Positions 13,117 to 40,209 are shown, numbered from the stretch's first letter. The stretch is 64,000 bases of DNA from a virus (IMGVR_UViG_3300011116_000922:1-64000), one strand, 5' to 3'. Program-made: numbers and translations. The notes: generated by a model from the sequence alone, not told the origin.

Positions 13117-16100
13117 ATGCCCGACATCAAGTCTATAGTACTCGGCACCCCCGCAGAAGCACTGGAAGATGTTCTTTCGCCCTTTATCGAAGAGCAGTTT
13201 CCGTCCTTTATGCGTAGTGATTACAGAAAACTCATTCTGTTTATCAAGGCATATTACGAGTGGGCGGAAACACAGAACAATCCCAGTTTCGTAAACCAAA
13301 AAGTCGGTAGCATTCGGGATGTGGACAACAGCCTTGAGCAGTTCTACACCCATTTCAAGAATATGTACTTGGACGGTTTTCCTGAGCAATTGGCAATCAA
13401 TATTGACGGAAATCAGCCCAACAAGCGCACCCTCATAAAGAAGATCAAGAACTTCTACGGAAACAAGGGCACGGAAAGCGCGTATCGTTTCTTGTTCCGT
13501 GTGCTGTTTGACAGTGATGTTGAATTCTACATTCCCAAGAATTTCATTCTACGAGCATCTGATGGGCAGTGGGTGGAAGAGATTTCCGTCAAGATTACTA
13601 GGAACAACGAGGACAAGCACCAGTATCTTTTGGGCGGAACCGTTGAACAATATAATGGATTGACCCTGCTTGGAGCAGCAAACATTGATCGTGTGTTCAA
13701 ATACTATCAAGACGGTGTTCCTGTAACCGAATTGTTCCTGACCAATCTGGTAGGAAACTTTATTCCCAATGCCATACTCATTCTTAATCCACAAGAAGAC
13801 AGCGGACAGGATTCGTTTACCGAAACCGCGTTTAGCGTTCTTGGCGAATTCTTTGTGCAGACACCGGGTGAAAACTACCGCGTTGGCGATACTGTATATG
13901 TCACCACGGGTGGTGTTGGATTCTCTGCCAAGGTTGAGCAGACAGGTTTGGCAGGAGCAGTAAAGCGCATCAGAATTGAAAACTCGGGTGTAAACTATTT
14001 CAGCAGTGTTACTGCTGTGGTTGTGAGTCCAAACGGAAGCAACAACACCGCGAAAATTCTGCTTACCCCGAGCGCGATTACGCGATATCCCGGTTACTAC
14101 AAGGGAAACCGTGGTAAAGTATCGTCCACTCAAAAACTATACGATGGTGACCTGTATCAAGAGTTTTCGTATCAGTTGAAGTCCGCAGTAAGCATTGACA
14201 AGTATTATTCTGTGCTGCGCCACTTGATTCATCCGGCAGGCATGAAGATGTTTGGCTCTATCCTGTTGGAAAATACTGTTGAGTCTCCTTCAAGTGGCTC
14301 ATCTCAACTTACCCGTGTTGGTATTCCTGTTCTTGGGAACTATACCCCGTATACACTAGGAACCACTTTCGATCTTCGTGCAAATGGTGTCACTGCTGCG
14401 GGTTCTTGGGTGTTTCAAGAGTACGGAATCACATACGGAACAACGGGCGATCTGTATCCGTTGGGATACAATCCGTATATTGAATCTGCGGGGTTCACTG
14501 GGCCAAACGGAAGAACTGCTCCGATTGGAACCTTGTTCAGACAGGGAGGAAGCGGTGGCGGAAATACTGGTTTGGGATACACATATTGCTATGTGCCCGA
14601 AAGCGGAAAAACCGCTCACCGTCCATTGGGCGCACCACTGGGCGGATTCACTGCTTGGTCTTTGTGGTACGAATCAAAACTTACACCTGATATGGTGGGA
14701 TATTCACCCGTGGGTATTGTTGGCTTGACTCTTTGGCTAAAGCCCGAAAACATTGGCGTGTGCGGCGGAACCATGATAACAGGTCGAAGCATGGACATTT
14801 GGCGCGATGCTTCGGGTTCCGGCAACCACGCTTTGCCGCCCAAGTGGGATATGTGGAATGCCACTTATGCGGGAATCACTGTTGACAAACTGCGACCCAC
14901 CCTGATTGTGCGAGATCGCGGTGTGACAGGCTGCACAGGCATTCAATTTAATGGTGGCGTGATTTATGGTCCGCACACCGTTTGGCTGCAAGCGGGAACA
15001 TGCGGTGGATATGCCACCGGAAAAACCCTTGGCGCAATATCTTCGGTTATTCCTTTTGCTCCGGGAAATACCGGAGAAAAGATTCTGTCCGGTCAGTTTT
15101 TCTCGTTGACCAATGGACTCACTCTCACCAAAGACATGACAGCGTTCATTGTTTTCCGCGCAGGAGTTACTGCCACAGGAAGCACAGCAGCGGGATACAC
15201 GGGTTCTAACTACGGACTAGGCTTAGTTTCATCCGCAAAGAAGTTCTTGGATTTCAGTCCCGCAACAGGAACAGGATTCACTTTCACGGGAACCGAAACC
15301 GATCACGCATTCTATCACCGTTCGTATTACGATGTGGATATTGACGCAACCAAGCAAACCACATCCTATTATTTTGCAAATGCAACCTCAACAGAATCCC
15401 TGTATCCATACGATACGGGATTGGTGGGGTTCCGTAGCAATGTTGGTAGCACAGGTGCGCTACGCATGGCATACGATCCGTATACATCGACCCTGACGGG
15501 AATTACTGCTGAAAATATCTCTATCGGGGAATGGCGACGCGAAACCGATTCGCGCATTCGCACATTCTATTCGGGCGACGAATCCAAGAATCTGTCCATT
15601 ATCACTGCTCGTAGAATTGCCCGTGCCACAAGTCCGGGCGGATCAAGTATCAACAATATTGCGGCATCGGAATCCGCTTATAATTCGGAAACCATTTCCC
15701 TTGGACGATTTGGTGCGTACTGCTTGCCTGTTCTTGATTGCCCGTATGGTGTAACCCACGCCAATTTTGTGAACTACGCACTTGCAAATCCATCGTATTC
15801 TTTCAAGGGCGTTATTTACGAAGTGGTGGTATATGACCGAGTGCTGACTGAAAGTGAGCGGCAAACGGTATACGGCTACCTGTCCAGAAAATACAATTTG
15901 GATCCTGTGATGCCGTTGAGTTACGCAACTTCGCACCCTAGCGCAACGCTTTTGGGTTATTCGTACTGGGATATTTCCAAACATCCCAGTACGGCGGGAA
16001 GTGCAAAGATACTTGCAGGCACATCATTTGGAAACATTACCATTAAGGATTTCTTGAGCCTATACGGTGTTATTTACAGATCAGCAGGCACTCGTCTATC

Positions 16101-16149
16101 TGACGGAACTGTATTGACCCAAGATACATATACGGTACTGGGAGAATAA
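13117..16149 (+). CDS. gp7: Baseplate wedge initiator gp7-like with C-terminal LamG/ConA-like region
   Basis: IEEQFP.F, FIKAYYEW, FYGNKGT, YQEFSYQLKS, HPAGMKMFG; C-terminal LWL, W.D.SG.GNHA, FKGVIYEVVVYDRVLT..ERQTV.GYL..KY. Confidence 0.8.
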   Translation: MPDIKSIVLGTPAEALEDVLSPFIEEQFPSFMRSDYRKLILFIKAYYEWAETQNNPSFVNQKVGSIRDVDNSLEQFYTHFKNMYLDGFPEQLAINIDGNQPNKRTLIKKIKNFYGNKGTESAYRFLFRVLFDSDVEFYIPKNFILRASDGQWVEEISVKITRNNEDKHQYLLGGTVEQYNGLTLLGAANIDRVFKYYQDGVPVTELFLTNLVGNFIPNAILILNPQEDSGQDSFTETAFSVLGEFFVQTPGENYRVGDTVYVTTGGVGFSAKVEQTGLAGAVKRIRIENSGVNYFSSVTAVVVSPNGSNNTAKILLTPSAITRYPGYYKGNRGKVSSTQKLYDGDLYQEFSYQLKSAVSIDKYYSVLRHLIHPAGMKMFGSILLENTVESPSSGSSQLTRVGIPVLGNYTPYTLGTTFDLRANGVTAAGSWVFQEYGITYGTTGDLYPLGYNPYIESAGFTGPNGRTAPIGTLFRQGGSGGGNTGLGYTYCYVPESGKTAHRPLGAPLGGFTAWSLWYESKLTPDMVGYSPVGIVGLTLWLKPENIGVCGGTMITGRSMDIWRDASGSGNHALPPKWDMWNATYAGITVDKLRPTLIVRDRGVTGCTGIQFNGGVIYGPHTVWLQAGTCGGYATGKTLGAISSVIPFAPGNTGEKILSGQFFSLTNGLTLTKDMTAFIVFRAGVTATGSTAAGYTGSNYGLGLVSSAKKFLDFSPATGTGFTFTGTETDHAFYHRSYYDVDIDATKQTTSYYFANATSTESLYPYDTGLVGFRSNVGSTGALRMAYDPYTSTLTGITAENISIGEWRRETDSRIRTFYSGDESKNLSIITARRIARATSPGGSSINNIAASESAYNSETISLGRFGAYCLPVLDCPYGVTHANFVNYALANPSYSFKGVIYEVVVYDRVLTESERQTVYGYLSRKYNLDPVMPLSYATSHPSATLLGYSYWDISKHPSTAGSAKILAGTSFGNITIKDFLSLYGVIYRSAGTRLSDGTVLTQDTYTVLGE

Positions 16150-16154
16150 GGCAA

Positions 16155-18578
16155 ATGCCACTACTACTAAAAACGTCCATCAAGAGAACATACGCAGAAA
16201 ATCTGCTTAACGATGTTGCGTTGAATCGTGGTCAGTATTTCTTGTTTGTGGCAAAATCCACGCCTTGGGATGCCACAGCAGGCGTGAGTGCCGATATTAT
16301 TCCGGTGACTCCTCCAGATACGGTTGAGGAAGAATACAACATCATGCGTAGTGTGATCGGGTACAAAAAACTGGATCCAAGCAAGATCGTGTTTGCTCTA
16401 CCGCGAGTTCCTTGGGAAATTACCACTTACGATGCCTACGAAGACGATCAAGCCCTTTTTGATGTTGATGCACCCAAGAATTTCTATGTGGTGTCTTCTG
16501 CCAACAACATCTACAAGTGCTTGAAGGCGGGAAGCGGAAACTCAACCATTGAGCCTTCTCACACAAGCACAACGGCACTGGAATACAATGACGGGTATAC
16601 ATGGAAGTATCTTGCAACCGTAAAGGAGTCCCTGCTCCCGTATGAACTCACGGATTATGTTCCGGTAACATACGCGTTAGTTCAGCAGGATACGCTTGGA
16701 ACAGACAGCGAATCCACCACCCAATTCAACGCTCAAAAGTCGGCAGTTAACGGGCAAATCAGTCGTCTTGATCTAACCGATACAGGCGGTGTTTCGGCTG
16801 CAACCTATTACGGCAGCGAATACGGGGCGCGATTTGCTGTTGGTGCAACCGGAAGCACCGCTGCTACCAATGTATCTTTTGGAGTGGGTGATTATTTCAC
16901 CATTACTTCAAGTACAAACACTAATGCTTTCAGTTTGCCCGTAAGTGATATTTCGAATTATGTGGGTTATGTGCTGCGTGTTGTTGGTGTTTCCGGCGGA
17001 AATCCATCGGATGTCAACAACTACGGAATTATCCACGGCGTAACTGCTAATTCCAATCAGTACACATTCACTGTTCGTGGAGAACACGAACCGTTTACTT
17101 TCACCTTTACTGGTGGAGCGAATTCTGTGTATTACGACATTATCCCATATGCCCGAATCAGTGGTGATGGCAGTGGGGCATATGGCTTCGTCACTACAGG
17201 CAAAACCGGGGCATCCGATTGGCGCAAGATTAACGGCATCAATCTGATTGACGGCGGTATGGACTACAGCCAAGCATCGGTTCAGGTTGTGAGTGCAAAA
17301 GCAGACGGCACATCTGGAAATACCGTGCATCCAACAATGAAAGCAGTGATTTCTCCAAAAGGTGGACACGCTTCCAACATCCTGAAAGAATTGAATGTTC
17401 AGGATGTGATTATGGTTGCCACCATTGACAGCAACGACGAAGCCATTATTTCCACGGGTGGAAGTTATCGTAAGTTTGGAATAATCCGCAACCCCATCGT
17501 GAACGACAACAGCGATGTGGTGGCAGGATCTCAATCTCCATACTACCGAGACTTGGTGCTTCAGTATTTGGGAGCCAGTTACAACAGCCTAGTAGGATTT
17601 CAAAACGCATATTTTGATGGCAGCGCAAGCAATTTCATTGTGGGCAAGGAATCGTATGCCACATTCCCGGTGGTTGCTGCAACGGTGTACAACACCACCA
17701 CAGCAGGGGAAAAGCGCGTACAGGTTCAGGTCAAGAATTCTGCTTCCCAACCCATCACATGGCTTGACCGCTTGCAGTACTACGACCTGTCGCTGTCTCC
17801 GTCAAAGAGCGGATTCCTGACAGGCGAAAAGGTGACACAAAATATTCCTGCCGGAATTTCCATTGGCGCACTAGGTGGAATCACCTATGCCTTCGGAATT
17901 AGTGCTGAAGGCACTATTGTAAGCGCAACCAATTCACTGTTGAGTGTTCGTGTCACAAAGAACGCATTTGTGAGCGGAACATCAAACACTTTGCAGATCA
18001 CCGGATACAACAGCGGAGTCACGGCTACTGTTGCGGGTGTCAGCCTGTCGTATGGGGAAAAGGTATATGTGAATCGTGGCTTTTCGTTGGCAACAGAAGC
18101 AGGACAGACACGGGAATTCTTCAAAATCATTAGCGCAAGCGTTCCGTACTTTGCTGCCGCAACAGTTCCGTCTTACAGCGGATTGACCGTTCTTCGAATG
18201 ACCAAACCAACCGGACTTGCGAATTTTACCGACACCACATGGCAAAACGGCGATTTTGTGCAACAGGGAGTCAGCGGATCGTATCTTTACGATTACGCTT
18301 CCGGCACGGTTTACAAGTGGTCACGAATAGATTTGTCCAATGGTTTGTTGTACATAAGTGAACCATTTGCAAATTTCAAATATGTTGCTGTAAATGGTGC
18401 GACTCTATCACGATTGAACACTGCGGGAGGAGTAGTGAATCAAGGCTACTCTGTGGCAGGCATTTCGGCTCCGGGCATCGACATTCATTCCGGGGAAATC
18501 ATATACATAAACAGTATCCAACCCATTCAGCGGTTGCCCAACCAAAGTGAAGAATTTAGATTACGAGTAGGATTCTAA
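16155..18578 (+). CDS. gp8: Baseplate wedge subunit gp8-like, extended
   Basis: FYVV, IYKCL, EPSH, DGYTWKYL, ISPKGGH, YRKFGIIRNP, SGEIIYIN..PIQR. Confidence 0.85.
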   Translation: MPLLLKTSIKRTYAENLLNDVALNRGQYFLFVAKSTPWDATAGVSADIIPVTPPDTVEEEYNIMRSVIGYKKLDPSKIVFALPRVPWEITTYDAYEDDQALFDVDAPKNFYVVSSANNIYKCLKAGSGNSTIEPSHTSTTALEYNDGYTWKYLATVKESLLPYELTDYVPVTYALVQQDTLGTDSESTTQFNAQKSAVNGQISRLDLTDTGGVSAATYYGSEYGARFAVGATGSTAATNVSFGVGDYFTITSSTNTNAFSLPVSDISNYVGYVLRVVGVSGGNPSDVNNYGIIHGVTANSNQYTFTVRGEHEPFTFTFTGGANSVYYDIIPYARISGDGSGAYGFVTTGKTGASDWRKINGINLIDGGMDYSQASVQVVSAKADGTSGNTVHPTMKAVISPKGGHASNILKELNVQDVIMVATIDSNDEAIISTGGSYRKFGIIRNPIVNDNSDVVAGSQSPYYRDLVLQYLGASYNSLVGFQNAYFDGSASNFIVGKESYATFPVVAATVYNTTTAGEKRVQVQVKNSASQPITWLDRLQYYDLSLSPSKSGFLTGEKVTQNIPAGISIGALGGITYAFGISAEGTIVSATNSLLSVRVTKNAFVSGTSNTLQITGYNSGVTATVAGVSLSYGEKVYVNRGFSLATEAGQTREFFKIISASVPYFAAATVPSYSGLTVLRMTKPTGLANFTDTTWQNGDFVQQGVSGSYLYDYASGTVYKWSRIDLSNGLLYISEPFANFKYVAVNGATLSRLNTAGGVVNQGYSVAGISAPGIDIHSGEIIYINSIQPIQRLPNQSEEFRLRVGF

Positions 18579-18587
18579 GAGGTAAAA

Positions 18588-21500
18588 ATGGCTTACGACC
18601 CTAGCATCTTTAATATCTCGCCGTATTACGACGATTTTGATCCGAACAACAAGTTTCTGCGGATGTTGTTCAAGCCGGGGTACGCTGTTCAAGCCCGTGA
18701 ATTGACTCAATTACAGACGGTTCTTCAGAATCAAATCTCAAAAATTGGCGATCACCTGTTCAAAGACGGATCCCGGATTGTCGCGGCTCCCATCAGTGTT
18801 CGCAATGCCAATTTCTTGGGTCTAAACACCGGAACGGGAACGCCGTTTGCTGCGTTTAGTTCCGCTAACTGGTCGTCCCTTGTGGGCGGAACGGTGTATT
18901 GGGGTGCTACCGCAAGCGCAAATATTTCTCATGTGCTGCCACCCCAAACCGATGACAAACTGTTTGTGGTGGTGGACTACACCAGTGGTTACAGCACTCA
19001 AATTCCCATTACTGGTGTCACGGTTGGAATCACAGCGGGCGATGGCTCTGCGTATTCTCCGTTTGTTACCGCGGGAGCAACCTACAACGGTCTATGCAAA
19101 CTCGTCACCATTGGTGACGGTATTTTCTATGTTGACGGCGCATTTGTAGTCAACGATCAGCAGACCTTTACCCCATATTCGGTGAGCGGCAGTCAGCGCA
19201 ACTTGAGCGGAACTGTTGGCGGTGTCACCTTTGCAGGAATCGACAAAAAGGTTGGTTTCACCATTACCCGTGATACGGTCACCTCGGCAGAAGACGATAC
19301 TCTGCTAGACCCTTCGTTTGGTTCTCCCAACTACAATGCACCGGGAGCGGATCGGTATGTGATTAACCTGACACTGGATCAGGTTGACACAACCGAGACT
19401 CCTGATGATTTTATTGAACTGGTTCGTTTTGAAGACGGAAAAATCACCAAGAAGGTGGACAAGGTTGTTTACGGTGATATTTCTAAATTGCTGTCCACGC
19501 GAACCTATGATGAGTCCGGTTCTTATGTGGTGAATCCATTTGAAATCAGTGTGCGAGAGTCTTCCACCGCATCGGAAAATCTAGATGTTGTGATTGGTCC
19601 GGGTAAGGCATATGTCTACGGCGTTGAGGTTGAAACCAAGTATCCGACCATTCTTGGCATTTCCAAGGGTCGGCAGACATACACCGAAACATCAAATTTC
19701 TCATTCAATGTAGGAAATGTAATTGGTGTGTGCTTGGACAGATCCACAAGTGGAGCAGGTGGAATAACCGCATACAACTATCTGACAAATATGAATGCGG
19801 GTGGTTCGGTTGTGCGTTTCCGAAACTCCAGTAACGCGGTTATCGGTGAAGCAAAGGTTCACGGATTTATTCCTGTTAGTGGATTTAGCGGGTGGGCAGG
19901 ATTCACGAACACAGCAAGCAATGTTGGCGCAACTGCGGGTTCGCAGTACTCTCTGTATTTCTATGGAGTTTGTGCGGGTTCGGTTATTTCCGGCGCAGCA
20001 AATGCGATTGTTTACGGGCAGATTGGAAATACCGCAGGAATCACTTTCGCGGTGCTGTATCCCCGTAGTGGAACTACTTTTGGCCCAATCGGTGGCAGTG
20101 CGTCATCCGACACTAGCCTTGTTTACGAAATCACACCATCCCAAGGCATCAGTGCATTCACCGAAGTGGTTTTCTACGGCAAGGCAGTAACCACATCATC
20201 CACAGGTTGGGGTGGCGGTGCGGCTGCAACATGGGCAGCAGGCAATGGATTGACGGGTGCTACATTTACATTTAGCCGTGCCGAACTTGATCTGCCAACC
20301 AATAACAACATCAGTCTTATTTGGTCGGATTCCATTACTACAACTCCAACCACTGATAACAATCTTCTGAACAAATATCAACTCATCAGCGGAAGTGGAG
20401 TCACTGCGGGATTGGTTGTGTCTCCCGCAGATCGTGATGGCGTAATCTCAAATGCAACCATCTATAAGTCAGGAGAATACATCAAACTGGCAGTTTCCGG
20501 TTTCCATCCGGGATTCACCGCACCAGTAAAGATTATTGCTCCGTACAAGTACACTATCAATACTGCTAGTTTGGCAACGCCGTCTACATGCATCCGCACC
20601 AAGACGGTTACCAATTACAGCATGACCGGAACCACGGTCACCCCCACTCTATCGCTCATCAACGGTCGGGTTGGTTTCACCTTGCCACATTGGGATGTGT
20701 ACTCTGTGTCCGGTATTTGGAGACAGGGCATTAGTATCCTTACGGACTTTGAATTGGATGACGGTCAACGCGAAGGATTCTACGATTACGCTGCTCTTGT
20801 GGTCAAGAAGTCCAAAGAAGCGGCAACTATGGTCGGAACGCCTGCTGCCTCATATGCTGTTGGTCAGGCTCCAAGCGGAATTTCTTACGCATACAGATAC
20901 TATCAGCACGGTGGAGTGTCGTTTGCTCCATTCCTTGGAAAGCACTCATATGTGGGCGTAACCTACAGCGAAATTCCGCTGTTCACCAATCCACGAACCG
21001 GAAGAACCGTATCACTGGCTAACTGCATGGATTTCCGTCACAGTGGTCCAACCTTTGACGCGGTTGTAGCCAAGCCCTACGGCTCATATGAAGGCTTCAC
21101 GGTATACACAGGCGCAACATGGAGCAACTTCATGCCCCGTATTGATCGCTTGAGTGTAAAGATCAATCCTTCGGATATGTCCACTTCGTTTGCCGTTGAC
21201 ACTGGAGATGTGGGTGATTTGTCTCCCGCTTCCCCGCCGGAAACCGAAAATTCCATGACTCTTGCCACATTGGTTGTTCCTGCGTATACACAGAGCGCAA
21301 CTGATGTTGTGGTAAACAAGAACGATGTTCGCCGCTACACAATGTCGGACATTCACAATGTGGAAAAACGAATTGACGATGTGGAATCGTTTACGAAACT
21401 GTCCCTGTCTGAAGGAGAGATGGACATGGTGTCCATCAAGACAGATATTGATTCGTATATCACTCTCGGTGGAACAACCGGAACATCCACGAACATCTAC

Positions 21501-23828
21501 TCTGTGACCACCGAACCAGTAAAGACCTCCATCTTTACAGACGATTTCTTTGGTCATGCGGGTGGAGATGTTTCTGATGTGAATCACCGTTGCTCCGTGG
21601 ACTACGAGTACGGCGAGATGCGTTCGCTGTTCTTGCACAAACCGCTTACTAGCCCACTCACAATTGCTGGAACTACATCTTCCGCAATGGTTTCTCCCGA
21701 TGGTCTGATTACGATGAGTTACACCGCCACTCCGTACATTACGAGTGATGGGTACAACAAGACCGTAAAGATCAATCCAACAGGAACCGTGAACTGGCTT
21801 GGATTTATTGACATCTCCAAGCAGTACGAACCCCAGTTTGAAACCGCTGTTCGTCCGGTTGTGTACACCAACAACCTGTTGGAAAACGACAACTGGATTG
21901 GTTCCAATGCTAACGACACTCGCGGATTCGGAACCCAGTGGAATGATTGGGAATACCTGTGGACGGGTACACAGATTCGTGCCGATCAAAAGGACGATGT
22001 TCAGAAGAGAATACTGGAAACTCCCCGAGTCAATTCCACCTCTTCTATTCCAACTGTAAATTCGGGCAATGAAAAGACATCCGTTAGCCGTCACGCACCC
22101 TCTGTAGAGCAGAAGGTGGGCAATCTAGTCACCGCAAGTCGCTTGATCGGCAGAAGCCGCTACAAGACGCAGGACAATCGGATTGTGGATCGAACCGTTG
22201 TTCCGTACATTCCCGCTTCGTCTTCGAATATCGGAGTCACGGCTTACGGAATGCGCCCCAATTCTAATGGACTCGCTTTGTATGTGGACGGCGTACTGGT
22301 AAAGAGCGGACTAACGACAAATGCCAACGGCACGGTCGGAGTCACCTTTGCGTTCTCTTCAGGCGGAAACCTGTCGGGCGAGAAGTCCATCCGCATCAGC
22401 GACAATGCAACCACACAGAACGCAACCCAAGCCGCAGACAAGGTGTTCTACTGCAAGGGAACCGTTAATCAGCGGGTTGACGGTGTGTACTCCACCCGCA
22501 ATCCCGAGTATCGCCGTCAGACTGTTACGAGCGAAGGCATCATCAAGGATCCCTTTAACCGTGAAGTGTCATACGACAATATTCAGGAAACACTCCAAAA
22601 CAACAGTTGGATTGATCCGCTGTGCCAGACCTTTGTTGTGGACAAGAAGGCATATCCCGAAGGCGTGTTTGCCAAGAGCGTAGACTTGTACTTCTCTGCG
22701 AAGGACAGCACTCTTCCGGTCACCGTGCAGTTGCGCCCAACGGTAAACGGCTATCCGTCACCATCGGTATCGTTCCCGTTCACCACAGTTACCCTGTTGC
22801 CGTCTTCAGTCAGCACGGGAACCTCGGGAACCAACAACGATCCGGTTGCCACCACATTCAACTTCAGCAGCCCCGTGTATCTTGAGCCGGGTGAATACGC
22901 AATTGCCGTAATCACCAACAGCAAGAACTACGAACTGTACGCAAACGATTCGGGAATCAATCTCACGAATACGGGTCGCAGCAACAGTCCGTTTGTGGGA
23001 ATCTTGTATCAGCCACAGAGCATTGGTGCAGCAGTGCAAGACCTGTCCACCGACATTGCTTTCGGTGTGAATATCTGCTCGTTCACCACTGCAACCAGTG
23101 GAACAGCAAACTTTACTGGAACACTATTCCTACCAGTTTCGGATTGTCAGGTTATCAAGATCAGTGTGCCAACGATTGTTCCCACCGGATGCTCGTATCA
23201 GATGAAGATTGATCCATCGGGAACTCCGTTGAATATTTACAATAATCAGAATGCATATCTGACTTCTGTATACGGGGCAAACAAGGAATTTGGATTCTCC
23301 CTCACCAAGCCGTCCAAGACTTACATCTCGCCTGCGGTTGATGCAGGAGTGTTCTTCGGAATGGGTGCCAAGATGATTGCCACATCGGCAACCAATCCCA
23401 ACACTGTCACCACCGAACCAAGTTCGTCCTATGTGTCCAAGGCAATCACTCTTCCCGATGAGTTGGCTTCCAATGCCATCTTTGCCACGGCAGAAGTATG
23501 CTGCCCATATGGATCAGAAGTTCGTGCCTATGTGCGGTGGTCGGATCGTGGTGAAAGCGACCTGTTCGGCAAGCAGTGGACACAGATGACTGCTGTCAGC
23601 GGATTGGGAAGCCCCAAGTTCCCGTTCACGGCAAACTCCAATCTGTCCAAGAACGAGTACGATTTCCGTCCCACTCGTTGGGCGTGGTTTGGTTCAAACA
23701 CCACCCCAACCGTCCGTGCGTATCAGGTTCTCCTGATGTACACAACCACACTATCGGGTTCCGGCAAGGTTTACTCCAAGTTGCCTGCCACACGCAATTT
23801 CCGAATGAGCAGTTTCCGTAGTATATGA
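18588..23828 (+). CDS. DUF4815 / VrlC-like large virion structural protein
   Basis: SPYYDDFD, LFKPGYAVQARELTQLQ, NYNAPGADR, RTYDESGSY, GPGKAYVYG, RRYTM.DI, DPLCQTF. Confidence 0.88.
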   Translation: MAYDPSIFNISPYYDDFDPNNKFLRMLFKPGYAVQARELTQLQTVLQNQISKIGDHLFKDGSRIVAAPISVRNANFLGLNTGTGTPFAAFSSANWSSLVGGTVYWGATASANISHVLPPQTDDKLFVVVDYTSGYSTQIPITGVTVGITAGDGSAYSPFVTAGATYNGLCKLVTIGDGIFYVDGAFVVNDQQTFTPYSVSGSQRNLSGTVGGVTFAGIDKKVGFTITRDTVTSAEDDTLLDPSFGSPNYNAPGADRYVINLTLDQVDTTETPDDFIELVRFEDGKITKKVDKVVYGDISKLLSTRTYDESGSYVVNPFEISVRESSTASENLDVVIGPGKAYVYGVEVETKYPTILGISKGRQTYTETSNFSFNVGNVIGVCLDRSTSGAGGITAYNYLTNMNAGGSVVRFRNSSNAVIGEAKVHGFIPVSGFSGWAGFTNTASNVGATAGSQYSLYFYGVCAGSVISGAANAIVYGQIGNTAGITFAVLYPRSGTTFGPIGGSASSDTSLVYEITPSQGISAFTEVVFYGKAVTTSSTGWGGGAAATWAAGNGLTGATFTFSRAELDLPTNNNISLIWSDSITTTPTTDNNLLNKYQLISGSGVTAGLVVSPADRDGVISNATIYKSGEYIKLAVSGFHPGFTAPVKIIAPYKYTINTASLATPSTCIRTKTVTNYSMTGTTVTPTLSLINGRVGFTLPHWDVYSVSGIWRQGISILTDFELDDGQREGFYDYAALVVKKSKEAATMVGTPAASYAVGQAPSGISYAYRYYQHGGVSFAPFLGKHSYVGVTYSEIPLFTNPRTGRTVSLANCMDFRHSGPTFDAVVAKPYGSYEGFTVYTGATWSNFMPRIDRLSVKINPSDMSTSFAVDTGDVGDLSPASPPETENSMTLATLVVPAYTQSATDVVVNKNDVRRYTMSDIHNVEKRIDDVESFTKLSLSEGEMDMVSIKTDIDSYITLGGTTGTSTNIYSVTTEPVKTSIFTDDFFGHAGGDVSDVNHRCSVDYEYGEMRSLFLHKPLTSPLTIAGTTSSAMVSPDGLITMSYTATPYITSDGYNKTVKINPTGTVNWLGFIDISKQYEPQFETAVRPVVYTNNLLENDNWIGSNANDTRGFGTQWNDWEYLWTGTQIRADQKDDVQKRILETPRVNSTSSIPTVNSGNEKTSVSRHAPSVEQKVGNLVTASRLIGRSRYKTQDNRIVDRTVVPYIPASSSNIGVTAYGMRPNSNGLALYVDGVLVKSGLTTNANGTVGVTFAFSSGGNLSGEKSIRISDNATTQNATQAADKVFYCKGTVNQRVDGVYSTRNPEYRRQTVTSEGIIKDPFNREVSYDNIQETLQNNSWIDPLCQTFVVDKKAYPEGVFAKSVDLYFSAKDSTLPVTVQLRPTVNGYPSPSVSFPFTTVTLLPSSVSTGTSGTNNDPVATTFNFSSPVYLEPGEYAIAVITNSKNYELYANDSGINLTNTGRSNSPFVGILYQPQSIGAAVQDLSTDIAFGVNICSFTTATSGTANFTGTLFLPVSDCQVIKISVPTIVPTGCSYQMKIDPSGTPLNIYNNQNAYLTSVYGANKEFGFSLTKPSKTYISPAVDAGVFFGMGAKMIATSATNPNTVTTEPSSSYVSKAITLPDELASNAIFATAEVCCPYGSEVRAYVRWSDRGESDLFGKQWTQMTAVSGLGSPKFPFTANSNLSKNEYDFRPTRWAWFGSNTTPTVRAYQVLLMYTTTLSGSGKVYSKLPATRNFRMSSFRSI

Positions 23829-24004: not shown

Positions 24005-26500
24005 ATGCCGGGAAGCACAGGGCCAGACCTAAACACATACATCATCCCCGAAGTCCAATTGGGCGACACCTTCAACTATTGGAGGGACAGCACCAATACG
24101 GCTATCTACAAACTCAACAAACTAAAGATATACGATGCCGTTACCAGTGCATCTATTGGTGCCACTTACGGAACCACTGGTGCGTGGCAGGCAGTTCTTC
24201 AGCCCACCATCACAAGCGGTCACACCTTTAGTGCGTTCATCACTCTGCCCGGTGGAATCACCACCACATTCCTGTTTGCAAGCAGTGGTGTCACTCTGTG
24301 GAGCAATCTGTATGTGAATGGAGGAGCAACCTTTGCTTCCACCACAAGCCATATAGGCGTGGCAACCTTTGCTACTGGTGTCACGGTAGCCGGAACACTA
24401 GATGTTAGTAGTGTTGCCAAGTTTGGTGCGGGAGCCACTGTAGCCGGAACACTAGATGTTGGTAGTGTTGCCAAGTTTGGCGCAGGAGTCACTGTAGCCG
24501 GAACACTAGATGTTACTGGTGTTAGCAGATTCAATTCCGGTGTGACTTTTGCGTCTATCACCAATCACACGGGTGTTGCAAATTTTGCAGGTGTTGCAAC
24601 CTTTGCTACTGGTGTCACGGTAGCCGGAACACTAGATGTTGGTAGTGTTGCCAAGTTTGGCGCAGGAGTCACTGTAGCCGGAACCCTTGATGTTACTGGT
24701 GTTAGCAGATTCAATTCCGGTGTGACTTTTGCGTCTATCACCAATCACACGGGTGTTGCAACCTTTGCTACTGGTATCACGGTAGCCGGAACTTTTGATG
24801 CGGGTGGTGTTGCCAAGTTTGGCGCAGGAGTCACGGTAGCCGGAACTTTTGATGCGGGTGGTGTTGCCAAGTTTGGCGCAGGAGTCACGGTAGCCGGAAC
24901 TTTTGATGCGGGTGGTGTTGCCAAGTTCCAATCGGGTGTCACGGTGGGCGGAAGTCTTGATGTTACTGGTGTTAGCAGATTCAATTCCGGTGTGAATTTT
25001 GCGTCCACCACCAATCACACGGGTGTTGCAACCTTTGCTACTGGTATCACTGTAGCCACACTAGATGTTACTGGTGTTAGCAGATTGAATTCTGGTGTGA
25101 ATTTTGCGTCCACCACCAATCACACGGGTGTTGCAACCTTTGCTACTGGTGTCACGGTGGGCGGAAGTCTTGATGTTACTGGTGTTAGCAGATTCAATTC
25201 CGGTGTGACTTTAGCCGGAACACTAGATGTTACTGGTGTTAGCAGATTCAATTCCGGTGTGACTTTTGCAGGTGTTGCAACCTTTGCTACTGGTGTCACT
25301 GTAGCCGGAACCCTTGATGTTACTGGTGTTAGCAGATTCAATTCCGGTGTGACTTTAGCCGGAACCCTTGATGTTACTGGTGTTAGCAGATTCAATTCGG
25401 GGCTAACGCTATCTGCTGTTACTGTTAATGGTATTTCACGATTCAATGGTTCAAATGTTTCAATTGGAACTGCTGCGCCGGGTGCGTCCCTTGATGTGTC
25501 TGGACAAATCAGAGTCAGGCAGGGAGGATCATATACAGATCCATCAAGCGAAGGTGCTGGTATTATTGCGTATGACAGTACTGGTGGTGATCTGACTATT
25601 TCTGCAAGATCGTCAAGCGGAACCACACAAATTGCACTTCGGACTTCCAACAGTGGTGCAGGTGCTGAACGGATGCGGATTTCCGGCACAGGTAATGTGG
25701 GAATCGGAACTTCTAGCCCACAGCAAAAGTTTGTTGTGTCTAATGGTAATCAAGAAGGAATTGAATTTGTTCCCGCAAACAGTCCAAATCTAAACATTAT
25801 TCAGTCGTACAATCGAACTTCTTCCACATATAACACTCTTGATTTGCGGGCAAGCGATTACAAATTTCGCATCTCTGGCACCGAACTAATCACGATTAAT
25901 AGTTCGGGTGATGTAAATATTGCTTCTACTACTTCATCTACTTCTAGCCCAACAGGTGCGCTCACGGTTGCTGGCGGTGTGGGTGTTGCGGGTGCGCTGA
26001 ACGTAGGGGGAACAAGTGCATCTACTTCTAGCCTAACAGGTGCGCTCACGGTTGCTGGCGGTGTGGGTGTTGCGGGTGCGCTGAACGTAGGGGGAAGAGT
26101 CAGCGCGAATGCCATCACGACATCAACCGGAATTAGTTTTGGCAGCAGTACTCTATCTACTCCAGCCGGAACTGCTCCTATGTTTGCGGTGCGGGCATGG
26201 GCGATTTGCACATGGAACGGAGCCACGATGACTCTTCAAAACTCTGGAAATATTCAAAGCGTTTCTGCTGACCCTTCTACTAGACTCGTACAATTCAATT
26301 TCATTACTAATATGCCAAGTTCAAACTATGCGGTATACGCTAATGGAGCGCGGAATCAAGGCAACGCACATGCAGTGGCAAATATCACTGCAAGTGCGCA
26401 GAGTTATGTTCAATTCCAGATTGAGGGTTTAGATGGATCGCAAATACTTGACAGCAATTCTGACAGACTAATAGAGGTGTATCTAATAGTAGTTTGCTAA
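24005..26500 (+). CDS. Tail fibre / whisker-like protein with beta-helical repeats
   Basis: N-terminal DTFNYWR..TN anchor, 18-aa repeats, ERMRI..GNVGIGTSSP fibre motif, TGALTVAGGVGV repeats, C-terminal VRAW...SGNI.SV domain. Confidence 0.85.
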   Translation: MPGSTGPDLNTYIIPEVQLGDTFNYWRDSTNTAIYKLNKLKIYDAVTSASIGATYGTTGAWQAVLQPTITSGHTFSAFITLPGGITTTFLFASSGVTLWSNLYVNGGATFASTTSHIGVATFATGVTVAGTLDVSSVAKFGAGATVAGTLDVGSVAKFGAGVTVAGTLDVTGVSRFNSGVTFASITNHTGVANFAGVATFATGVTVAGTLDVGSVAKFGAGVTVAGTLDVTGVSRFNSGVTFASITNHTGVATFATGITVAGTFDAGGVAKFGAGVTVAGTFDAGGVAKFGAGVTVAGTFDAGGVAKFQSGVTVGGSLDVTGVSRFNSGVNFASTTNHTGVATFATGITVATLDVTGVSRLNSGVNFASTTNHTGVATFATGVTVGGSLDVTGVSRFNSGVTLAGTLDVTGVSRFNSGVTFAGVATFATGVTVAGTLDVTGVSRFNSGVTLAGTLDVTGVSRFNSGLTLSAVTVNGISRFNGSNVSIGTAAPGASLDVSGQIRVRQGGSYTDPSSEGAGIIAYDSTGGDLTISARSSSGTTQIALRTSNSGAGAERMRISGTGNVGIGTSSPQQKFVVSNGNQEGIEFVPANSPNLNIIQSYNRTSSTYNTLDLRASDYKFRISGTELITINSSGDVNIASTTSSTSSPTGALTVAGGVGVAGALNVGGTSASTSSLTGALTVAGGVGVAGALNVGGRVSANAITTSTGISFGSSTLSTPAGTAPMFAVRAWAICTWNGATMTLQNSGNIQSVSADPSTRLVQFNFITNMPSSNYAVYANGARNQGNAHAVANITASAQSYVQFQIEGLDGSQILDSNSDRLIEVYLIVVC
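24323..25399 (+). repeat. Array of 20 coding repeat units, mostly 54 bp / 18 aa
   Basis: Units such as GVTVAGTLDVTGVSRFNS, GVTVAGTFDAGGVAKFGA and GVTFASITNHTGVATFAT; near-identical DNA between copies of the same type. Confidence 0.95.
25935..26096 (+). repeat. Tandem duplication, 84-bp period
   Basis: 25935-26012 and 26019-26096 match at 77 of 78 bases (STSS[P/L]TGALTVAGGVGVAGALNVGG). Confidence 0.9.
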
Positions 26501-28218: not shown

Positions 28219-29090
28219 TGTTCTCCCAGTTCTACAACGGCTCTATCCGCAAGATGGTGGTTGGATTTGGTTCCATATTCAACCAAATCGTTATTTCTCG
28301 CCAAGAGGAAAGCGGCACCAAGTACATTGAAGTGCCTATTGCGTATGCGCCCAAGGAAAAGTACAAGGTTCGTCTAGCAGGAGATCCGTATTTCCAAAAC
28401 CCCATGCAGATTACTCTGCCCCGTCTTGCGTTTGAGATCACGGGGTTTGCGTATGATCCTGCTCGTAAGCGCAACAGTCTGCAAAAGAACATTATCCGAG
28501 ACACAGCATCAACAGGAATCAACTACAGTTATTCCGAGGTTCCGTACAACATTGACTTTGGGCTGTATGTGTACACCCGGAACATGGATGACGGTCTGCA
28601 AATCATTGAGCAGATCCTGCCGTACTTTGCTCCCGAATTCGTCACCAGTATGAATTTCGATGCGGTGAACCGCAAGGTGGATGTGCCCATCTACCTGAAT
28701 TCCGTGACTTCCGAAGAAGACTATGAAGGCGATTTTCAAAATCGTCGTTCCATTATCTTCACGCTGAACTTCACGATGAAGACCTATCTGTTTGGCCCAG
28801 TTCGTTCGTACAACGAGATCCGCAAGATTACTCCCCGTCTACTGAACATGGACTACTACGACAACGGGTACTCTGCCGGATACACGGGCGCAGGCTCCAC
28901 TGCTGCTGATCTGTTCAAGGTGTTTGTGGGCATTTCCGGTCCAAGCGGAGCAAGTTCAGACAAGTACAACTACACTCCGTATGCCAAAGTATACGAGTAT
29001 CAGAGCGGCATAAGTCTCGCGCAGGGCGTGACAGTGAACTGGTTCAGCACTCCGGGTGCAACACAAGGCATGGGATCATTCTATGGCTGA
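28218..29090 (+). CDS. gp15: Tail sheath stabiliser / terminator gp15
   Basis: GFGSIFN, VPIAYAPKEK, LPRLAFE, DGLQIIEQILPYF, YEGDF, F.MKTYLFGP. Confidence 0.95.
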   Translation: MFSQFYNGSIRKMVVGFGSIFNQIVISRQEESGTKYIEVPIAYAPKEKYKVRLAGDPYFQNPMQITLPRLAFEITGFAYDPARKRNSLQKNIIRDTASTGINYSYSEVPYNIDFGLYVYTRNMDDGLQIIEQILPYFAPEFVTSMNFDAVNRKVDVPIYLNSVTSEEDYEGDFQNRRSIIFTLNFTMKTYLFGPVRSYNEIRKITPRLLNMDYYDNGYSAGYTGAGSTAADLFKVFVGISGPSGASSDKYNYTPYAKVYEYQSGISLAQGVTVNWFSTPGATQGMGSFYG

Positions 29091-31995: not shown

Positions 31996-34029
31996 ATGGG
32001 ATTTAGAGTTAGCCCCGGCGTAAGCATTAAAGAAATCGACCTGACCACAATCGTTCCTGCGGTTGCCACCACCCCCGGCGGTTATGCCGGATATTTTTAT
32101 TGGGGCCCCTGCAACAAGATCATCACGATTGCAAGCGAGACTGAACTTGCCAATACCTTTGGCAAGCCTGACTCCACCAATTATGTGGATTTCTTCACCC
32201 CCGCGAACTTCCTACAGTACGGCAACAGTATGCAGGTTGTGCGTGTTGTTGGTGCTTCTGCTACCAATGCTGCTGCTGCAATCACCGGAACCACTGGCGC
32301 ACTGGACATCAACAACGAAGACGAGTACGATGCGCCTTCGGCTGCTGTAACCAGTGCTGCTGCTGCCAAGACCGTGTTTGCAGCACGCTATCCCGGTGCC
32401 CTCGGCAACAGCCTCAAGGTTGTTGTTGTCAGCGGCGCAGGCATCACCACATACGGTGGCGCAACTCTTGCAAGCCCCCTTTCGTTCGGTGACACCGGAC
32501 TCACATTCTGTGTTGCCAACAACACCCGGCAGTACCACTTTGCGGTGGGAGATGAGATCCGATTTGCAGACGGAACCGCTGTACGGGTTGCCTCTGTTGC
32601 CAAAAACTTGGTTGGAAACACATCAGTGTTTGTTGATGTCCCCGCTGTAAGCAACGAATTCCAAGGCGTTACTTCGGAGAATAACGGATTCATCAAACTT
32701 ACTTTCCAGAACCCCATTCCCGCTGCACAGAACGCAGGCTCAACCTTCCAAGTCAAGAGTGTGTACACCAACTATGTAAACACTGTTGCAACCACCACCA
32801 ACTACGCTGCTACCGTTGGTGGATCCGGTGACATGGTTAGCGTACTGGTGTTTGACTCAGACGGCAAGTGGACAGGCACAAAGGACACACTGATTGAGAA
32901 GTTTGAAGCCGTGTCTCGCGCAACCGATGCCCGCAACACTGATGGCTCGGGCAACTACTATAAGGATGTGATCCGCGAGAAGTCGCAGTACATCTACGCA
33001 CTGCAAGCCAACTTCTCAGACAACAGCGGATACCTTTCCACCAAGACCGATTGGCCCTTGCTGAACAACATCAGCGGTGCCCGTCTTGTCAACGACAACA
33101 TTGTGTCGATGATTCTTGGAAACGGTGCAAACGCAACGCCCACCGATTCGGAGCGTTGGCAGTACGGATGGAGTCAGTTTGCTGATCCCACCGCAATTGA
33201 TGTGTCTCTGCTGCCGCTTGGAAACGCTTCTGCCAACCTAGCCAAACTCGTAATCAATAATGTTTGCGAACAGCGTCTAGACTGCATGGCATTCGCGTCC
33301 CCCGCGTCTTCCGATGTTGTGTCTGCTCTGCCGTACCAAGCCTTGAACAATATCAAGACTTTCCGCGAAAGCACTCTCAACATCAACTCGTCCTACGCTG
33401 TGCTTGACAGCGGTTGGAAGTATCAACTTGATACCTACAACAATGTGGTTCGTACCATGCCACTAAACGCAGACATTGCAGGTCTGGTGGCGCGTACCGA
33501 ATTCACAGACGAGGCTTGGTTCTCGCCCGCAGGCTTCAACCGGGGTCAGATCAAGAACGTGGTCAAGTTGGCATACAACCCAACTTCCGAGGCTCACCGC
33601 AACGAACTGTACACCCGGCAGGTCAACCCTGTCGTGTCGTTCCCCGGTGAGGGCGTAATCCTGTACGGAGACAAGACCGCTCAGAGCAAGCCATCGGCAT
33701 TCGACCGCATTAATGTCCGCCGTCTGTTCATCGTGCTTGAGAAGGCAATCGCAACGGCATCCAAGTTCTTCCTGTTCGAACAGAACGATTCGTTCACCCG
33801 CGCACAGTTCAAGAACCTGATTGTCCCCTTCCTCAAGACCGTACAACAGCGGCGTGGTATCACCGACTTCAAGGTGGTCTGCGACGACACCAACAACACG
33901 GGCGAGGTCATCGACCGCAACGAGTTTGTAGCCGATATCTTCATCAAGCCGACTCGCAGCATCAACTTCATCCAGTTGAACTTTATTGCCACCAAGACAG
34001 GCGTGAATTTCAGCGAAGTTGGCGGCTAA
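31996..34029 (+). CDS. gp18: Tail sheath protein gp18
   Basis: SPGV..KEID, WGP, YPGALGN, DSGWKYQ, WFSPAG.NRG, AFDRINVRRLF, IKPTRSINFI. Confidence 0.97.
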   Translation: MGFRVSPGVSIKEIDLTTIVPAVATTPGGYAGYFYWGPCNKIITIASETELANTFGKPDSTNYVDFFTPANFLQYGNSMQVVRVVGASATNAAAAITGTTGALDINNEDEYDAPSAAVTSAAAAKTVFAARYPGALGNSLKVVVVSGAGITTYGGATLASPLSFGDTGLTFCVANNTRQYHFAVGDEIRFADGTAVRVASVAKNLVGNTSVFVDVPAVSNEFQGVTSENNGFIKLTFQNPIPAAQNAGSTFQVKSVYTNYVNTVATTTNYAATVGGSGDMVSVLVFDSDGKWTGTKDTLIEKFEAVSRATDARNTDGSGNYYKDVIREKSQYIYALQANFSDNSGYLSTKTDWPLLNNISGARLVNDNIVSMILGNGANATPTDSERWQYGWSQFADPTAIDVSLLPLGNASANLAKLVINNVCEQRLDCMAFASPASSDVVSALPYQALNNIKTFRESTLNINSSYAVLDSGWKYQLDTYNNVVRTMPLNADIAGLVARTEFTDEAWFSPAGFNRGQIKNVVKLAYNPTSEAHRNELYTRQVNPVVSFPGEGVILYGDKTAQSKPSAFDRINVRRLFIVLEKAIATASKFFLFEQNDSFTRAQFKNLIVPFLKTVQQRRGITDFKVVCDDTNNTGEVIDRNEFVADIFIKPTRSINFIQLNFIATKTGVNFSEVGG

Positions 34030-37437: not shown

Positions 37438-37444
37438 CTAAATA
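37438..37444 (+). promoter_or_regulatory. Late promoter-like CTAAATA before gp22
   Basis: Intergenic, followed by AAGGAG. Confidence 0.7.
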
Positions 37445-37467
37445 TATTCTAAAGGAGAACTCCAGTC

Positions 37468-38682: not shown

Positions 38683-38742
38683 ATTTACTTTCACACATTC
38701 CAGTCAAGCGTTGACTGATTAAACCTAAAGGAGATACTACAA

Positions 38743-40209
38743 ATGGCGATCAATAACGATCTACTCACCGAACAGGCTATCCGTAAGTGGAAGCCCGTTC
38801 TGGACCATAGCGATATGGCTCCAATCACAGACCCACACCGCCGCGCAATCACGGCTACCCTCTTGGAGAACCAAGAGCGCGCCATCAAGGAGCAGATGCT
38901 TGTTGAGGCTCCCGGAGCCGCCAACATCATCGGTGGCGGTGCATCCCCCACTGTTGGTAGCGAAGGCGGCATCAAGGGCTACGATCCAATTCTCATCCAG
39001 TTGGTTCGTCGCGCCATGCCCAACCTCATGGCTTACGACATCTGCGGCGTTCAGGCTATGTCGGCTCCGACAGGCTTGATCTTCGCAATGCGTAGCCGTT
39101 ACAGCAATCAGAGCGGCACCGAAGCCCTGTACAACGAACCACAGGCAACCTTCTCGGGTGCAGGTGCTACTGCCAGCCCCGGCGCACTCGGTACTGTTGC
39201 AGGTAGCACAGGCCCAACCGGAACGCTTGCTTTTGATGCTTCTAACGCAGGTGTTGATCCGTTCTTTGGCTACGCTGGTAGCAGAGATCCGGGATCGGCT
39301 AGCGGTCTAACCTCTGGCTCCGGTCTTGCTACTGCTTACGGCGAAGCCAACGCTCCTGCCGAAATGGCATTCAGCATTGAGCGCGTTGCTGTACAGGCTG
39401 CAACCCGTATGCTTGCTGCATCCTACTCGGTGGAACTGGCTCAAGACCTTAAGGCTGTTCACGGTCTTGACGCTGAAACCGAACTCGCCAACATTCTCAG
39501 CACGGAAATCCTTGCTGAAATCAACCGCGAAGTCGTTCGTACCGTTTACCGCACTGCTAAACTCGGAGCGCAGCAGACCGATCTGTACTACAAGACGGTC
39601 TACGGCGGTCTGACCACTCAGGCTAGCGGCACCAACTACGGTGGCGTGTACGATCTCATTCAGGACTCGGACGGTCGTTGGAGCGCGGAAAAGTTCCGTG
39701 GTCTGATGTTCCAGATTGAGCGCGAAGCCAACAAGATTGCCAAGGATACCCGTCGCGGCAAGGGCAACTTCATCATCTGCTCGGCAGATGTTGCCAGTGC
39801 CCTCGCAATGGGTGGCTTCCTGAACATCAGCCCCGCGCTGAATGTCAACCTTGATGTTGATGACACTGGCAACACCTTTGCCGGAACCCTCAACGGTAAG
39901 ATCAAGGTTTACATCGACCCGTATCAGGATGTCAGCAGCGGTACGAACACCAACTTTGTCTGCGTTGGATATAAGGGATCTAGCCCTTACGATGCAGGCG
40001 TGTTCTACTGCCCCTATGTCCCGCTACAGATGATGCGTGCAGTTGATACCACGACCTTCCAGCCCAAGATCGCGTTCAAGACGCGCTACGGCATGGTAGC
40101 GAACCCCTTCGCTGAAGGTGCTTCGCAGGGTCTTGGTCGCCTGACCGACCGCAGCAACCTCTATTACCGTATCTTCCGCGTGGACAACCTCCACGGCGTG
40201 GCTTCGTAA
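38743..40209 (+). CDS. gp23: Major capsid protein gp23
   Basis: KW.PVL, LLENQE, LVRRAMPNL, ELAQDLKAVHGLDAE, DGRWS.EKF, DAG.FYCPYVPL, FKTRYG. Confidence 0.98.
   Translation: MAINNDLLTEQAIRKWKPVLDHSDMAPITDPHRRAITATLLENQERAIKEQMLVEAPGAANIIGGGASPTVGSEGGIKGYDPILIQLVRRAMPNLMAYDICGVQAMSAPTGLIFAMRSRYSNQSGTEALYNEPQATFSGAGATASPGALGTVAGSTGPTGTLAFDASNAGVDPFFGYAGSRDPGSASGLTSGSGLATAYGEANAPAEMAFSIERVAVQAATRMLAASYSVELAQDLKAVHGLDAETELANILSTEILAEINREVVRTVYRTAKLGAQQTDLYYKTVYGGLTTQASGTNYGGVYDLIQDSDGRWSAEKFRGLMFQIEREANKIAKDTRRGKGNFIICSADVASALAMGGFLNISPALNVNLDVDDTGNTFAGTLNGKIKVYIDPYQDVSSGTNTNFVCVGYKGSSPYDAGVFYCPYVPLQMMRAVDTTTFQPKIAFKTRYGMVANPFAEGASQGLGRLTDRSNLYYRIFRVDNLHGVAS

Follow-up and report, generated by a model that had tools for sequence, protein, structure and literature searches.

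An excess of the tripeptide Gly-x-Thr (G-x-T) runs through the distal tail proteins of a T4-like phage whose genome also encodes a putative protein glycosyltransferase and a large island of glycan genes. Here, we describe these features in IMGVR_UViG_3300011116_000922, a single-contig virus record of 147,410 bp; the window that we analysed is its first 64 kb (positions 1–64000), and coordinates beyond 64000 refer to the rest of the genome. We find that the excess is a real, Thr-specific and lineage-specific property of distal tail proteins, namely gp7-like and gp8-like baseplate proteins, a DUF4815/VrlC-like protein, fibres, a collagen-like protein and p152, a small protein with a BppU_N-like β-sandwich. 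We propose that G-x-T, preferentially G-x-T-G, marks sites of O-glycosylation on virion proteins, and that the island extends the glycan, a reading to which we give nearly, but not quite, even weight. It is built on motif statistics, the family resemblance of the enzyme, gene linkage and covariation across genomes. From the sequences we infer that the enzyme would act on these proteins, that G-x-T would be what it reads and which sugars may be made.

Motif statistics in the virion proteins

The window holds a T4-type (Straboviridae-type) virion module, found by Pfam and PHROG searches, in which the gene order gp6–gp7–gp8 ... gp13–gp14–gp15–gp16–gp17–gp18–gp19–gp20 ... gp23 is syntenic with that of relatives in IMG/VR. 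The genes considered here are as follows (aa, amino acids; nt, nucleotides).

11248: gp6
13117–16149, + strand: gp7-like baseplate wedge protein, 1010 aa (PF23786, phrog_17744)
16155–18578, + strand: gp8-like baseplate wedge protein, 807 aa (phrog_438; Pfam Phage-Gp8 below cut-off)
18588–23828, + strand: DUF4815/VrlC-like large tail protein, 1746 aa (PF16075 at 1e-41; PDB 9euf, a DUF4815 protein)
24005–26500, + strand: fibre protein, 831 aa, with an 18-aa tandem array and a C-terminal tip
24382–25398, + strand: the 54-nt (18-aa) tandem repeat array in the fibre gene (Tandem Repeats Finder)
28218–29090, + strand: gp15 tail sheath stabiliser (PF16724), with a C-terminal extension rich in G-x-[TS]
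31996–34029, + strand: gp18 tail sheath, with a weak G-x-[TS] excess
38743–40209, + strand: gp23 major capsid protein, not enriched

Expected motif counts were taken from shuffles that preserve composition within 20-aa windows; windows of 10 aa gave the same result. A reading of the window from sequence alone (the sequence-only reading) had described G-x-(T/S) as saturating the outer virion proteins and as much rarer in portal and terminase. Against the shuffles, G-x-[TS] is in excess in the gp7-like protein (37 observed versus 21.4 expected, z score (z) 4.0), the gp8-like protein (27 versus 15.6, z 3.4), DUF4815 (46 versus 34.5, z 2.3), the fibre (46 versus 30.7, z 3.4), gp15 (9 versus 4.2, z 2.7) and gp18 (15 versus 9.0, z 2.4), and is at expectation in portal, terminase and prohead proteins. 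For these proteins the contrast that had been drawn by eye stands, except for gp23, which had been counted among the motif-rich proteins and proves to be at expectation (9 versus 8.9; G-x-T, 6 versus 4.2). ‘Saturating’ was too strong a word: the excess is only 1.4–2-fold and concerns Thr, with G-x-S raised only in the gp8-like protein. It is, however, confined to this spacing, as neither G[TS] and G-x-x-[TS], the comparisons that the sequence-only reading had named, nor G-x-x-x-[TS], [TS]-G or [TS]-x-G shows comparable enrichment in the same proteins under local shuffling.

Separating the two hydroxylated residues sharpens the signal. G-x-T reaches 28 versus 12.6 (z 4.9) in the gp7-like protein and 30 versus 17.7 (z 3.5) in DUF4815; the gp8-like excess is mainly G-x-S (16 versus 8.4), and G-x-S is at expectation in the other enriched proteins. 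When all residue pairs at spacings 1–4 are ranked in the gp7-like, gp8-like and DUF4815 proteins together, G-x-T comes out on top (69 versus 38, z 6.1), with the runner-up at z 3.7. Genome-wide, 12 tail and fibre proteins, selected partly on their G-x-T excess, hold 187 G-x-T against 104.9 expected (ratio 1.78, z 9.4), and the remaining 143 proteins of the 147-kb genome are at expectation (146 versus 148). A set defined by criterion, the Gly+Thr-rich non-collagen open reading frames (ORFs), gives 185 versus 110 (ratio 1.69, z 8.5).

The sites are unevenly placed. Those of gp15 all lie in residues 217–282, past the Pfam match, and those of gp18 cluster at residues 76–275. Around 29 of the 46 fibre sites fall within the array, which has periods of 54, 108, 162 and 180 at 77–100% DNA match and units that read FATGVTVAG / DVTGVSRFNSGVTFAS; these sites are copies of one unit and are therefore not independent. 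The fibre's C-terminal tip (residues 540–694) resembles the Bdellovibrio fibre bd2133 (PDB 8ond, 4.3e-5). Outside the window, two further G-x-T-enriched proteins lie at 105–107.7 kb. A collagen-like protein at 84317–86542, with a GERGEK-type G-X-Y run and GPTGPTG stretches, is also G-x-T enriched, as is the fibre that follows it at 86571–88562, which has repeated SFNG[LR]TGAV motifs. An ORF on the − strand at 1–1266, running off the window start, has a strong G-x-S excess (13 versus 4.7) and ends in about 12 tandem copies of the 12-aa unit QPPIPGGSTVAT.

The phage has no close isolate: its major capsid protein region is about 70% identical in nucleotides to cyanophage S-RSM4, and the gp7-like and DUF4815 proteins show only 24–34% amino acid identity to any INPHARED phage. 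Full-length relatives at 40–93% identity are numerous in metagenomes, which allowed the excess to be followed across lineages. In T4 structural proteins the G-x-T ratio is 0.87, and values for the whole module span 0.6 to 1.9 across 79 IMG/VR loci that surround homologues of DUF4815. Pooling the 25 high loci gives 1586 versus 1066 (ratio 1.49, z 16.6), with G-x-T again the top pair and G-x-S (0.99), G-x-V (1.09), G-x-I (1.00) and S-x-T (1.06) flat; the 38 low loci give 0.91. Both groups were chosen on the ratio, so that the specificity, and not the magnitude, is the informative part. The excess also differs between lineages among full-length DUF4815 orthologues, and all 42 gp7-like orthologues are enriched roughly twofold. 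The G-x-T ratio correlates with GC content among the 79 loci (rho 0.56). We rejected GC content as the driver because the relative G010 shows a strong excess at a GC content of 0.36; Syn33 (0.40) is not enriched and Moby (0.54) is mildly so.

The GT2-TPR enzyme and its gene neighbourhood

The candidate for the initiating enzyme lies 4 kb past the window end, at the far end of the glycan island. It is a protein of glycosyltransferase family 2 (GT2) with a GT-A domain followed by a region resembling tetratricopeptide repeats (TPR). The island and the genes around this enzyme are as follows.

52618–64000, + strand: part of the glycan island after regA that lies in the window (Pfam), running on to about 69.3–69.7 kb of the genome
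52618–53307, + strand: conserved first island gene, 229 aa, 68–89% identical in 35 of 35 related loci
53926–54567, + strand: conserved GT2 glycosyltransferase near the island start (PF00535 at 1.8e-6)
58277–59194, + strand: GT10 α-1,3-fucosyltransferase-like gene of the variable middle (PF00852 at 2.7e-20, FucT_N at 2.7e-14)
68019–69260 of the genome: GT2 (GT-A) + TPR-like enzyme, 413 aa, the conserved last island enzyme
69260–69718 of the genome: p152, a 152-aa BppU_N-like β-sandwich protein, directly downstream of the GT2-TPR gene

The enzyme matches PF00535 at 3.5e-13 over residues 8–93, and its GT-A domain carries a DxD motif, I88-D-A-D-D92 (DADD), that is invariant in 30 homologues. Matches to the TPR-type models ANAPC3, TPR_14, TPR_17 and TPR_12 (2.5e-5 to 7e-3) all fall below the Pfam cut-offs, and designed TPR proteins weakly match residues 180–240. 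The nearest solved structures in a PDB search are GmaR (4.9e-6), 7msk (6.8e-5) and SunS (0.011); SunS is also the closest NCBIfam family, at 1.8e-7 but with 30 bits against a cut-off of 350. GmaR is the O-linked N-acetylglucosamine (O-GlcNAc) transferase of Listeria flagellin, and 7msk and SunS are peptide glycosyltransferases. At least 550 IMG/VR contigs carry the GT2-TPR enzyme; among isolates it is rare, with only seven matching records in INPHARED and no T4-like phage among them.

The pair formed by this gene and p152 (genome 68019–69718; locus L184:8019–9718) begins 4.0 kb and ends 5.7 kb past the window end. Of 80 viral loci, 66 have p152 directly downstream of the enzyme gene, usually at no more than about 150 bp, even where the rest of the island is reduced or missing. 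The p152 family is itself twofold enriched in G-x-T (311 versus 156) and has a conserved S-G-V-T-x-G-G-x-T-G loop. An AlphaFold2 (AF2) model of p152, with a predicted local distance difference test (pLDDT) score of 88, is a β-sandwich like the small tail-tip or baseplate proteins of T5/DT57C and 80alpha and the N-terminal domains of BppU; the conserved loop is its lowest-confidence stretch. Prediction of a complex between the enzyme and p152 scored 0.00, below the mark, which counts neither for nor against binding.

Linkage to G-x-T-rich genes recurs in unrelated genomes. The 309-kb jumbo phage Tunturi_5, which is unrelated, has a homologue of the enzyme (40% identity) 3.7 kb from its tail fibre gp29, the sole strongly G-x-T-enriched protein there (79 versus 38, z 8.9), with (GPT/GAT)n runs. 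Among 80 bacterial loci with homologues at 35–47% identity, a (G-x-T)n collagen-like gene is found in 22, at no more than 1.2 kb from the enzyme gene in 20 of these and no more than 300 bp in 11; in the control, phage loci around gp44, none of 1066 ORFs is (G-x-T)n collagen-like. An extreme pairing is found in Bradyrhizobium mercantei (locus L367:1719–6896), where about 1.1 kb separates a GT2-TPR homologue from a 1725-aa protein that contains 388 G-x-T triplets. As judged from sequence comparison, the enzyme family appears tied to G-x-T-rich proteins in phages and bacteria, and both its architecture and its closest relatives point to protein O- or S-glycosyltransferases.

In genomes of T4-like phages, enzyme and excess tend to occur together. 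The comparison covered whole genomes or large contigs and used Gly+Thr-rich ORFs only, with collagen-like ORFs excluded. The enzyme-positive genomes G000, G006, G004, G013, G010 and G011 have G-x-T ratios of 1.54–1.69 (z 5.3–9.7); the enzyme-negative ones are as follows.

T4: GT2-TPR enzyme absent, G-x-T ratio 1.01
Syn33: GT2-TPR enzyme absent, G-x-T ratio 1.04
HTVC008M: GT2-TPR enzyme absent, G-x-T ratio 1.11
BUCT-ZZ01: GT2-TPR enzyme absent, G-x-T ratio 0.83
G003 (74% complete): GT2-TPR enzyme absent in the available part, G-x-T ratio 0.96
Moby: GT2-TPR enzyme absent, G-x-T ratio 1.38

All six positive genomes are enriched and five of the six negative ones are not. The sequence-only reading had named, as a check, whether motif enrichment varies together with island content; followed through the GT2-TPR enzyme, this association holds for every positive genome and is weakened by Moby and by the chance that the positives form a single clade. 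Sites with a further Gly three residues before or after the motif separate the sets as well, at 1.57–2.49 in enzyme-positive versus 0.32–1.23 in enzyme-negative genomes. In related phages, fibres have long (GAT)n or GPQGPT collagen-like runs with Cys-rich ends (locus L025:15309–20603; G003, 69.5–118 kb), and the marine-type G003 has eight collagen-like G-x-T proteins and no GT2-TPR enzyme in the available 74% of its genome.

The glycosyltransferase island that the sequence-only reading had placed at 52618–64000 was confirmed by Pfam and extends about 5 kb beyond the window, to a total of 17 kb and about 20 glycan genes. It contains methyltransferases, GT2, GT47/RXYLT1-like, GT25 and GT10 fucosyltransferase genes, a sugar C-methyltransferase, three NAD-dependent epimerase/dehydratases and a GT1-like gene. 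We surveyed 35 related loci whose sequence continues for 3 kb or more past regA (the contigs of G001 and G002 end before or at the site), and the island is present in all 35. Its ends are conserved, with the 52618 gene, whose protein has no Pfam or NCBIfam match, and the 53926 GT2 on one side, and a short-chain dehydrogenase/reductase gene, the 68019 gene and p152 on the other. The 53926 GT2 is found at 61–72% identity in 34 of the 35 loci, the exception having only 3.5 kb after regA. The middle is variable, a mosaic across the 35 relatives like an O-antigen locus. In two of 20 sampled GT2-TPR loci (L254, L282), regA is followed directly by the GT2-TPR gene.

These observations suggest a pathway in which the soluble GT2(GT-A)+TPR protein encoded at 68019–69260 would be the initiating enzyme, attaching a first sugar to Thr in the cytoplasm, in the manner of SgtA on the GPT/GAT triplets of BclA3. 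The rest of the island (52618 to about 68000), with its other glycosyltransferases, its methyltransferases and its nucleotide-sugar enzymes, would go on to assemble a glycan that may differ between strains, possibly with methylated sugars or fucose. On this sequence evidence the phage tail is probably sugar-coated.

Site anatomy and alternative explanations

The anatomy of the sites bears on whether they are acceptors or structural elements. Hydrophobic residues occupy the middle of the motif in 46% of sites and position +3 in 44%; A, F, V or G stands at +3, and Ala is frequent at +4. One-third of the sites in the gp7-like, gp8-like and DUF4815 proteins have Gly at −3 or +3 (as in GVTGCTG, GATGST, GKTGAS and GLTGAT), and this class is the most enriched (2.9-fold, 23 versus 8.0), compared with 1.55-fold for isolated sites. 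In the gp7-like protein, about 12 of 28 sites, in a very conserved Gly/Pro/Tyr-rich domain, do not vary even at 42–50% identity, and the rest are clade-specific. In DUF4815, seven to eight of 30 sites keep an intact G-x-T in at least 60% of distant orthologues, and around 13 are fixed only in the clade at 55% identity or above. The candidate acceptor sites were placed by secondary structure on the AF2 model of the gp7-like protein (pLDDT 62.7). In the confident part the motif Gly is in coil at 15 of 16 sites, and the motif Thr is in coil at ten, in a strand at six and in a helix at one; the low-confidence segment, residues 328–529, holds 12 of the 28 sites. The boundary from coil to strand coincides exactly with about six of the 17 confidently modelled sites.

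That the motif is only a structural habit is a possibility to be taken seriously, if one well short of even. G-x-T would then reflect Gly in a turn with Thr opening the strand that follows, short connectors of collagen-like or polyproline-II type and fibre repeats, all inherited with lineage-specific domains, and the island would act elsewhere, for example on envelope glycans of the host, or have p152 or the collagen-like fibre as its sole target. The coil-to-strand boundaries, the coil Gly and the hydrophobic flanks described above all fit this account, as do the fibre sites that are copies of one repeat and the gp7-like C-terminal domains, which are lineage-specific (T4 gp7 is matched by the N terminus only). 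Several further observations weigh against acceptor sites, and most of them also support the structural account. Two-thirds of the sites in the gp7-like, gp8-like and DUF4815 proteins are isolated triplets within globular proteins. Many sites are invariant core residues, and in the gp7-like protein the invariant ones never change to Ser and thus behave like structural residues. Motif residues show almost no extra conservation: motif Thr is barely more conserved than other Thr (0.67 versus 0.57; 0.68 versus 0.54), and motif Gly no more than other Gly. Mild excesses occur without the enzyme, in Moby (1.38) and, for isolated sites, in HTVC008M (1.25), and in G006, which carries the enzyme, the DUF4815 protein shows no enrichment. 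The phages with the enzyme may descend from one ancestor and form one clade, in which case the covariation may count as a single event. In Tunturi_5 the non-collagen Gly/Thr-rich proteins are at expectation, and the precedent of SgtA and the bacterial gene neighbours concern collagen-like (G-x-T)n runs. SgtA, moreover, takes Ser, which is not enriched in the phage proteins.

Other observations weigh against structure as the whole cause. A strand or turn periodicity general to T4-like tails was rejected in that role: T4 structural proteins give 0.87 and the complete T4, Syn33 and BUCT-ZZ01 genomes 0.83–1.04, and β-propensity should also enrich G-x-V and G-x-I, which stay flat. A shuffled domain shared by the enriched proteins was likewise rejected, as an all-against-all BLASTP comparison found nothing significant and no common domain. 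Full-length DUF4815 orthologues vary in excess between lineages, and the excess tracks an enzyme resembling protein glycosyltransferases whose homologues adjoin G-x-T proteins in unrelated genomes. We consider it improbable that the motif serves a different process directed at Thr, for example phosphorylation or signals for proteolysis or assembly, or that it stems from a bias at the DNA or codon level. Within the motif, GGA is favoured among the Gly codons (41 of 69 versus 101 of 275 elsewhere, p 0.008; 13117–23828), which may be a codon-context effect of the V, I or A codons that follow; Thr codons in the same region are not skewed (p 0.42), the motif persists at 40–75% orthologue identity and at GC contents from 0.36 to 0.50, and no kinase or other Thr-modifying enzyme was seen linked to the motif. 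Still less probable, to the point of being remote, is an artefact of Gly/Thr-rich composition and internal repeats. The enriched proteins are indeed Gly/Thr-rich and the tandem array inflates the fibre count, but the excess survives shuffling in both window sizes, is specific to spacing 2, to the order Gly to Thr and to Thr, appears in gp7-like, gp8-like and DUF4815 proteins without such repeats and is missing from the equally Gly/Thr-rich proteins of T4, Syn33 and BUCT-ZZ01.

Taken with these points, the idea of the sequence-only reading, that the tripeptide is recognised by an enzyme and that the island provides for this, gains from the GT2-TPR family, the SgtA precedent, the covariation and the gene linkage, and has to give up Ser and gp23. 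O-glycosylation at acceptor sites most likely applies at least to the G-x-T-G and collagen-like subset and to the S-G-V-T-x-G-G-x-T-G loop of p152, and some isolated G-x-T sites are probably structural only. The fullest form of the proposal is that G-x-T(-G) is a genuine O-glycosylation sequon not only on collagen-like fibres but also on folded proteins of the baseplate and tail, and that a broad uncultured T4-like clade coats its host-recognition apparatus through a cytoplasmic, lipid-carrier-independent pathway, with strain-swapped middle genes varying the glycan. We regard this form as unlikely, if far from negligible.

Relation to known glycosylation systems

The closest known system is SgtA–BclA3 of Clostridioides difficile, in which BclA3 is a collagen-like glycoprotein of the exosporium and SgtA its O-GlcNAc transferase. 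SgtA has a GT-A + TPR layout and attaches β-O-GlcNAc to the Thr of GPT/GAT peptides, among them TGATGLIGPTGATGA, which comes from the BclA3 collagen-like region; its gene adjoins that of its substrate, and it also accepts Ser (PMC7157674). Thr-rich collagen-like proteins of bacteria or viruses, including Bacillus BclA, bear O-linked glycans on the Thr of G-x-T triplets (cited in PMC7157674, ref. 37). Judged by the published description of SgtA, the phage system shares with it the N-terminal GT-A/GT2 domain, followed in the phage enzyme by TPR-like repeats, Thr in G-x-T as the acceptor, here a candidate one, a gene beside a G-x-T-rich gene and a first sugar that is, or here would be, extended by further sugars. 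It differs in being carried by a T4-like phage, in having its candidate targets in the tail, baseplate and fibres, most of them not collagen-like, and in the place of the enzyme gene, which ends a 17-kb island of about 20 glycan genes. With Bacillus BclA-type proteins the phage has in common a collagen-like protein of its own with GPTGPTG stretches, although most motif sites in the window lie outside collagen-like runs.

Resemblance to other systems is looser. GmaR and SunS/ThuS, the latter S-/O-glycosyltransferases of glycocins, are soluble GT-A enzymes with a helical repeat domain and glycosylate proteins or peptides directly without a lipid carrier, but their similarity to the phage enzyme is low (E 5e-6 to 1e-2), and they act on unrelated substrates, namely flagellin and bacteriocin loops. 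The glycosylation of mycobacteriophage virions, alluded to in PMC11256854, is a further loose parallel: Freeman et al. in 2023 reportedly found that mycobacteriophage glycosyltransferases modify the phage's own capsid and tail tube. That system is said to involve another phage group, other enzymes and other targets (C-terminal regions of the capsid and tube proteins), with no G-x-T motif or large variable island described. To our knowledge, virion glycosylation is documented for very few phages, none of them T4-like. In the literature on phage virion glycosylation and G-x-T fibres, of which our coverage is incomplete, no account of such a system in T4-like phages was found. What is new is that a T4-like phage is the carrier, that the candidate targets include tail and baseplate proteins outside the collagen-like class, that the enzyme is tightly paired with p152 and that the 17-kb island has conserved ends and a variable middle.

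If the structural explanation is true, the tail proteins offer a clean example of a lineage-specific tripeptide bias that needs a structural explanation. If G-x-T instead marks O-glycosylation, a large environmental T4-like clade devotes about 12% of its genome to sugar-coating its tail apparatus, and such a coat could affect host recognition, resistance to proteases or grazers, aggregation and antigenicity. The variable island would then be a new axis of phage diversity, the phage counterpart of O-antigen diversity. The SgtA-type G-x-T acceptor rule would be extended from spore collagens to viral proteins, providing a simple sequence signature with which to predict glycosylated virion proteins in metagenomes.

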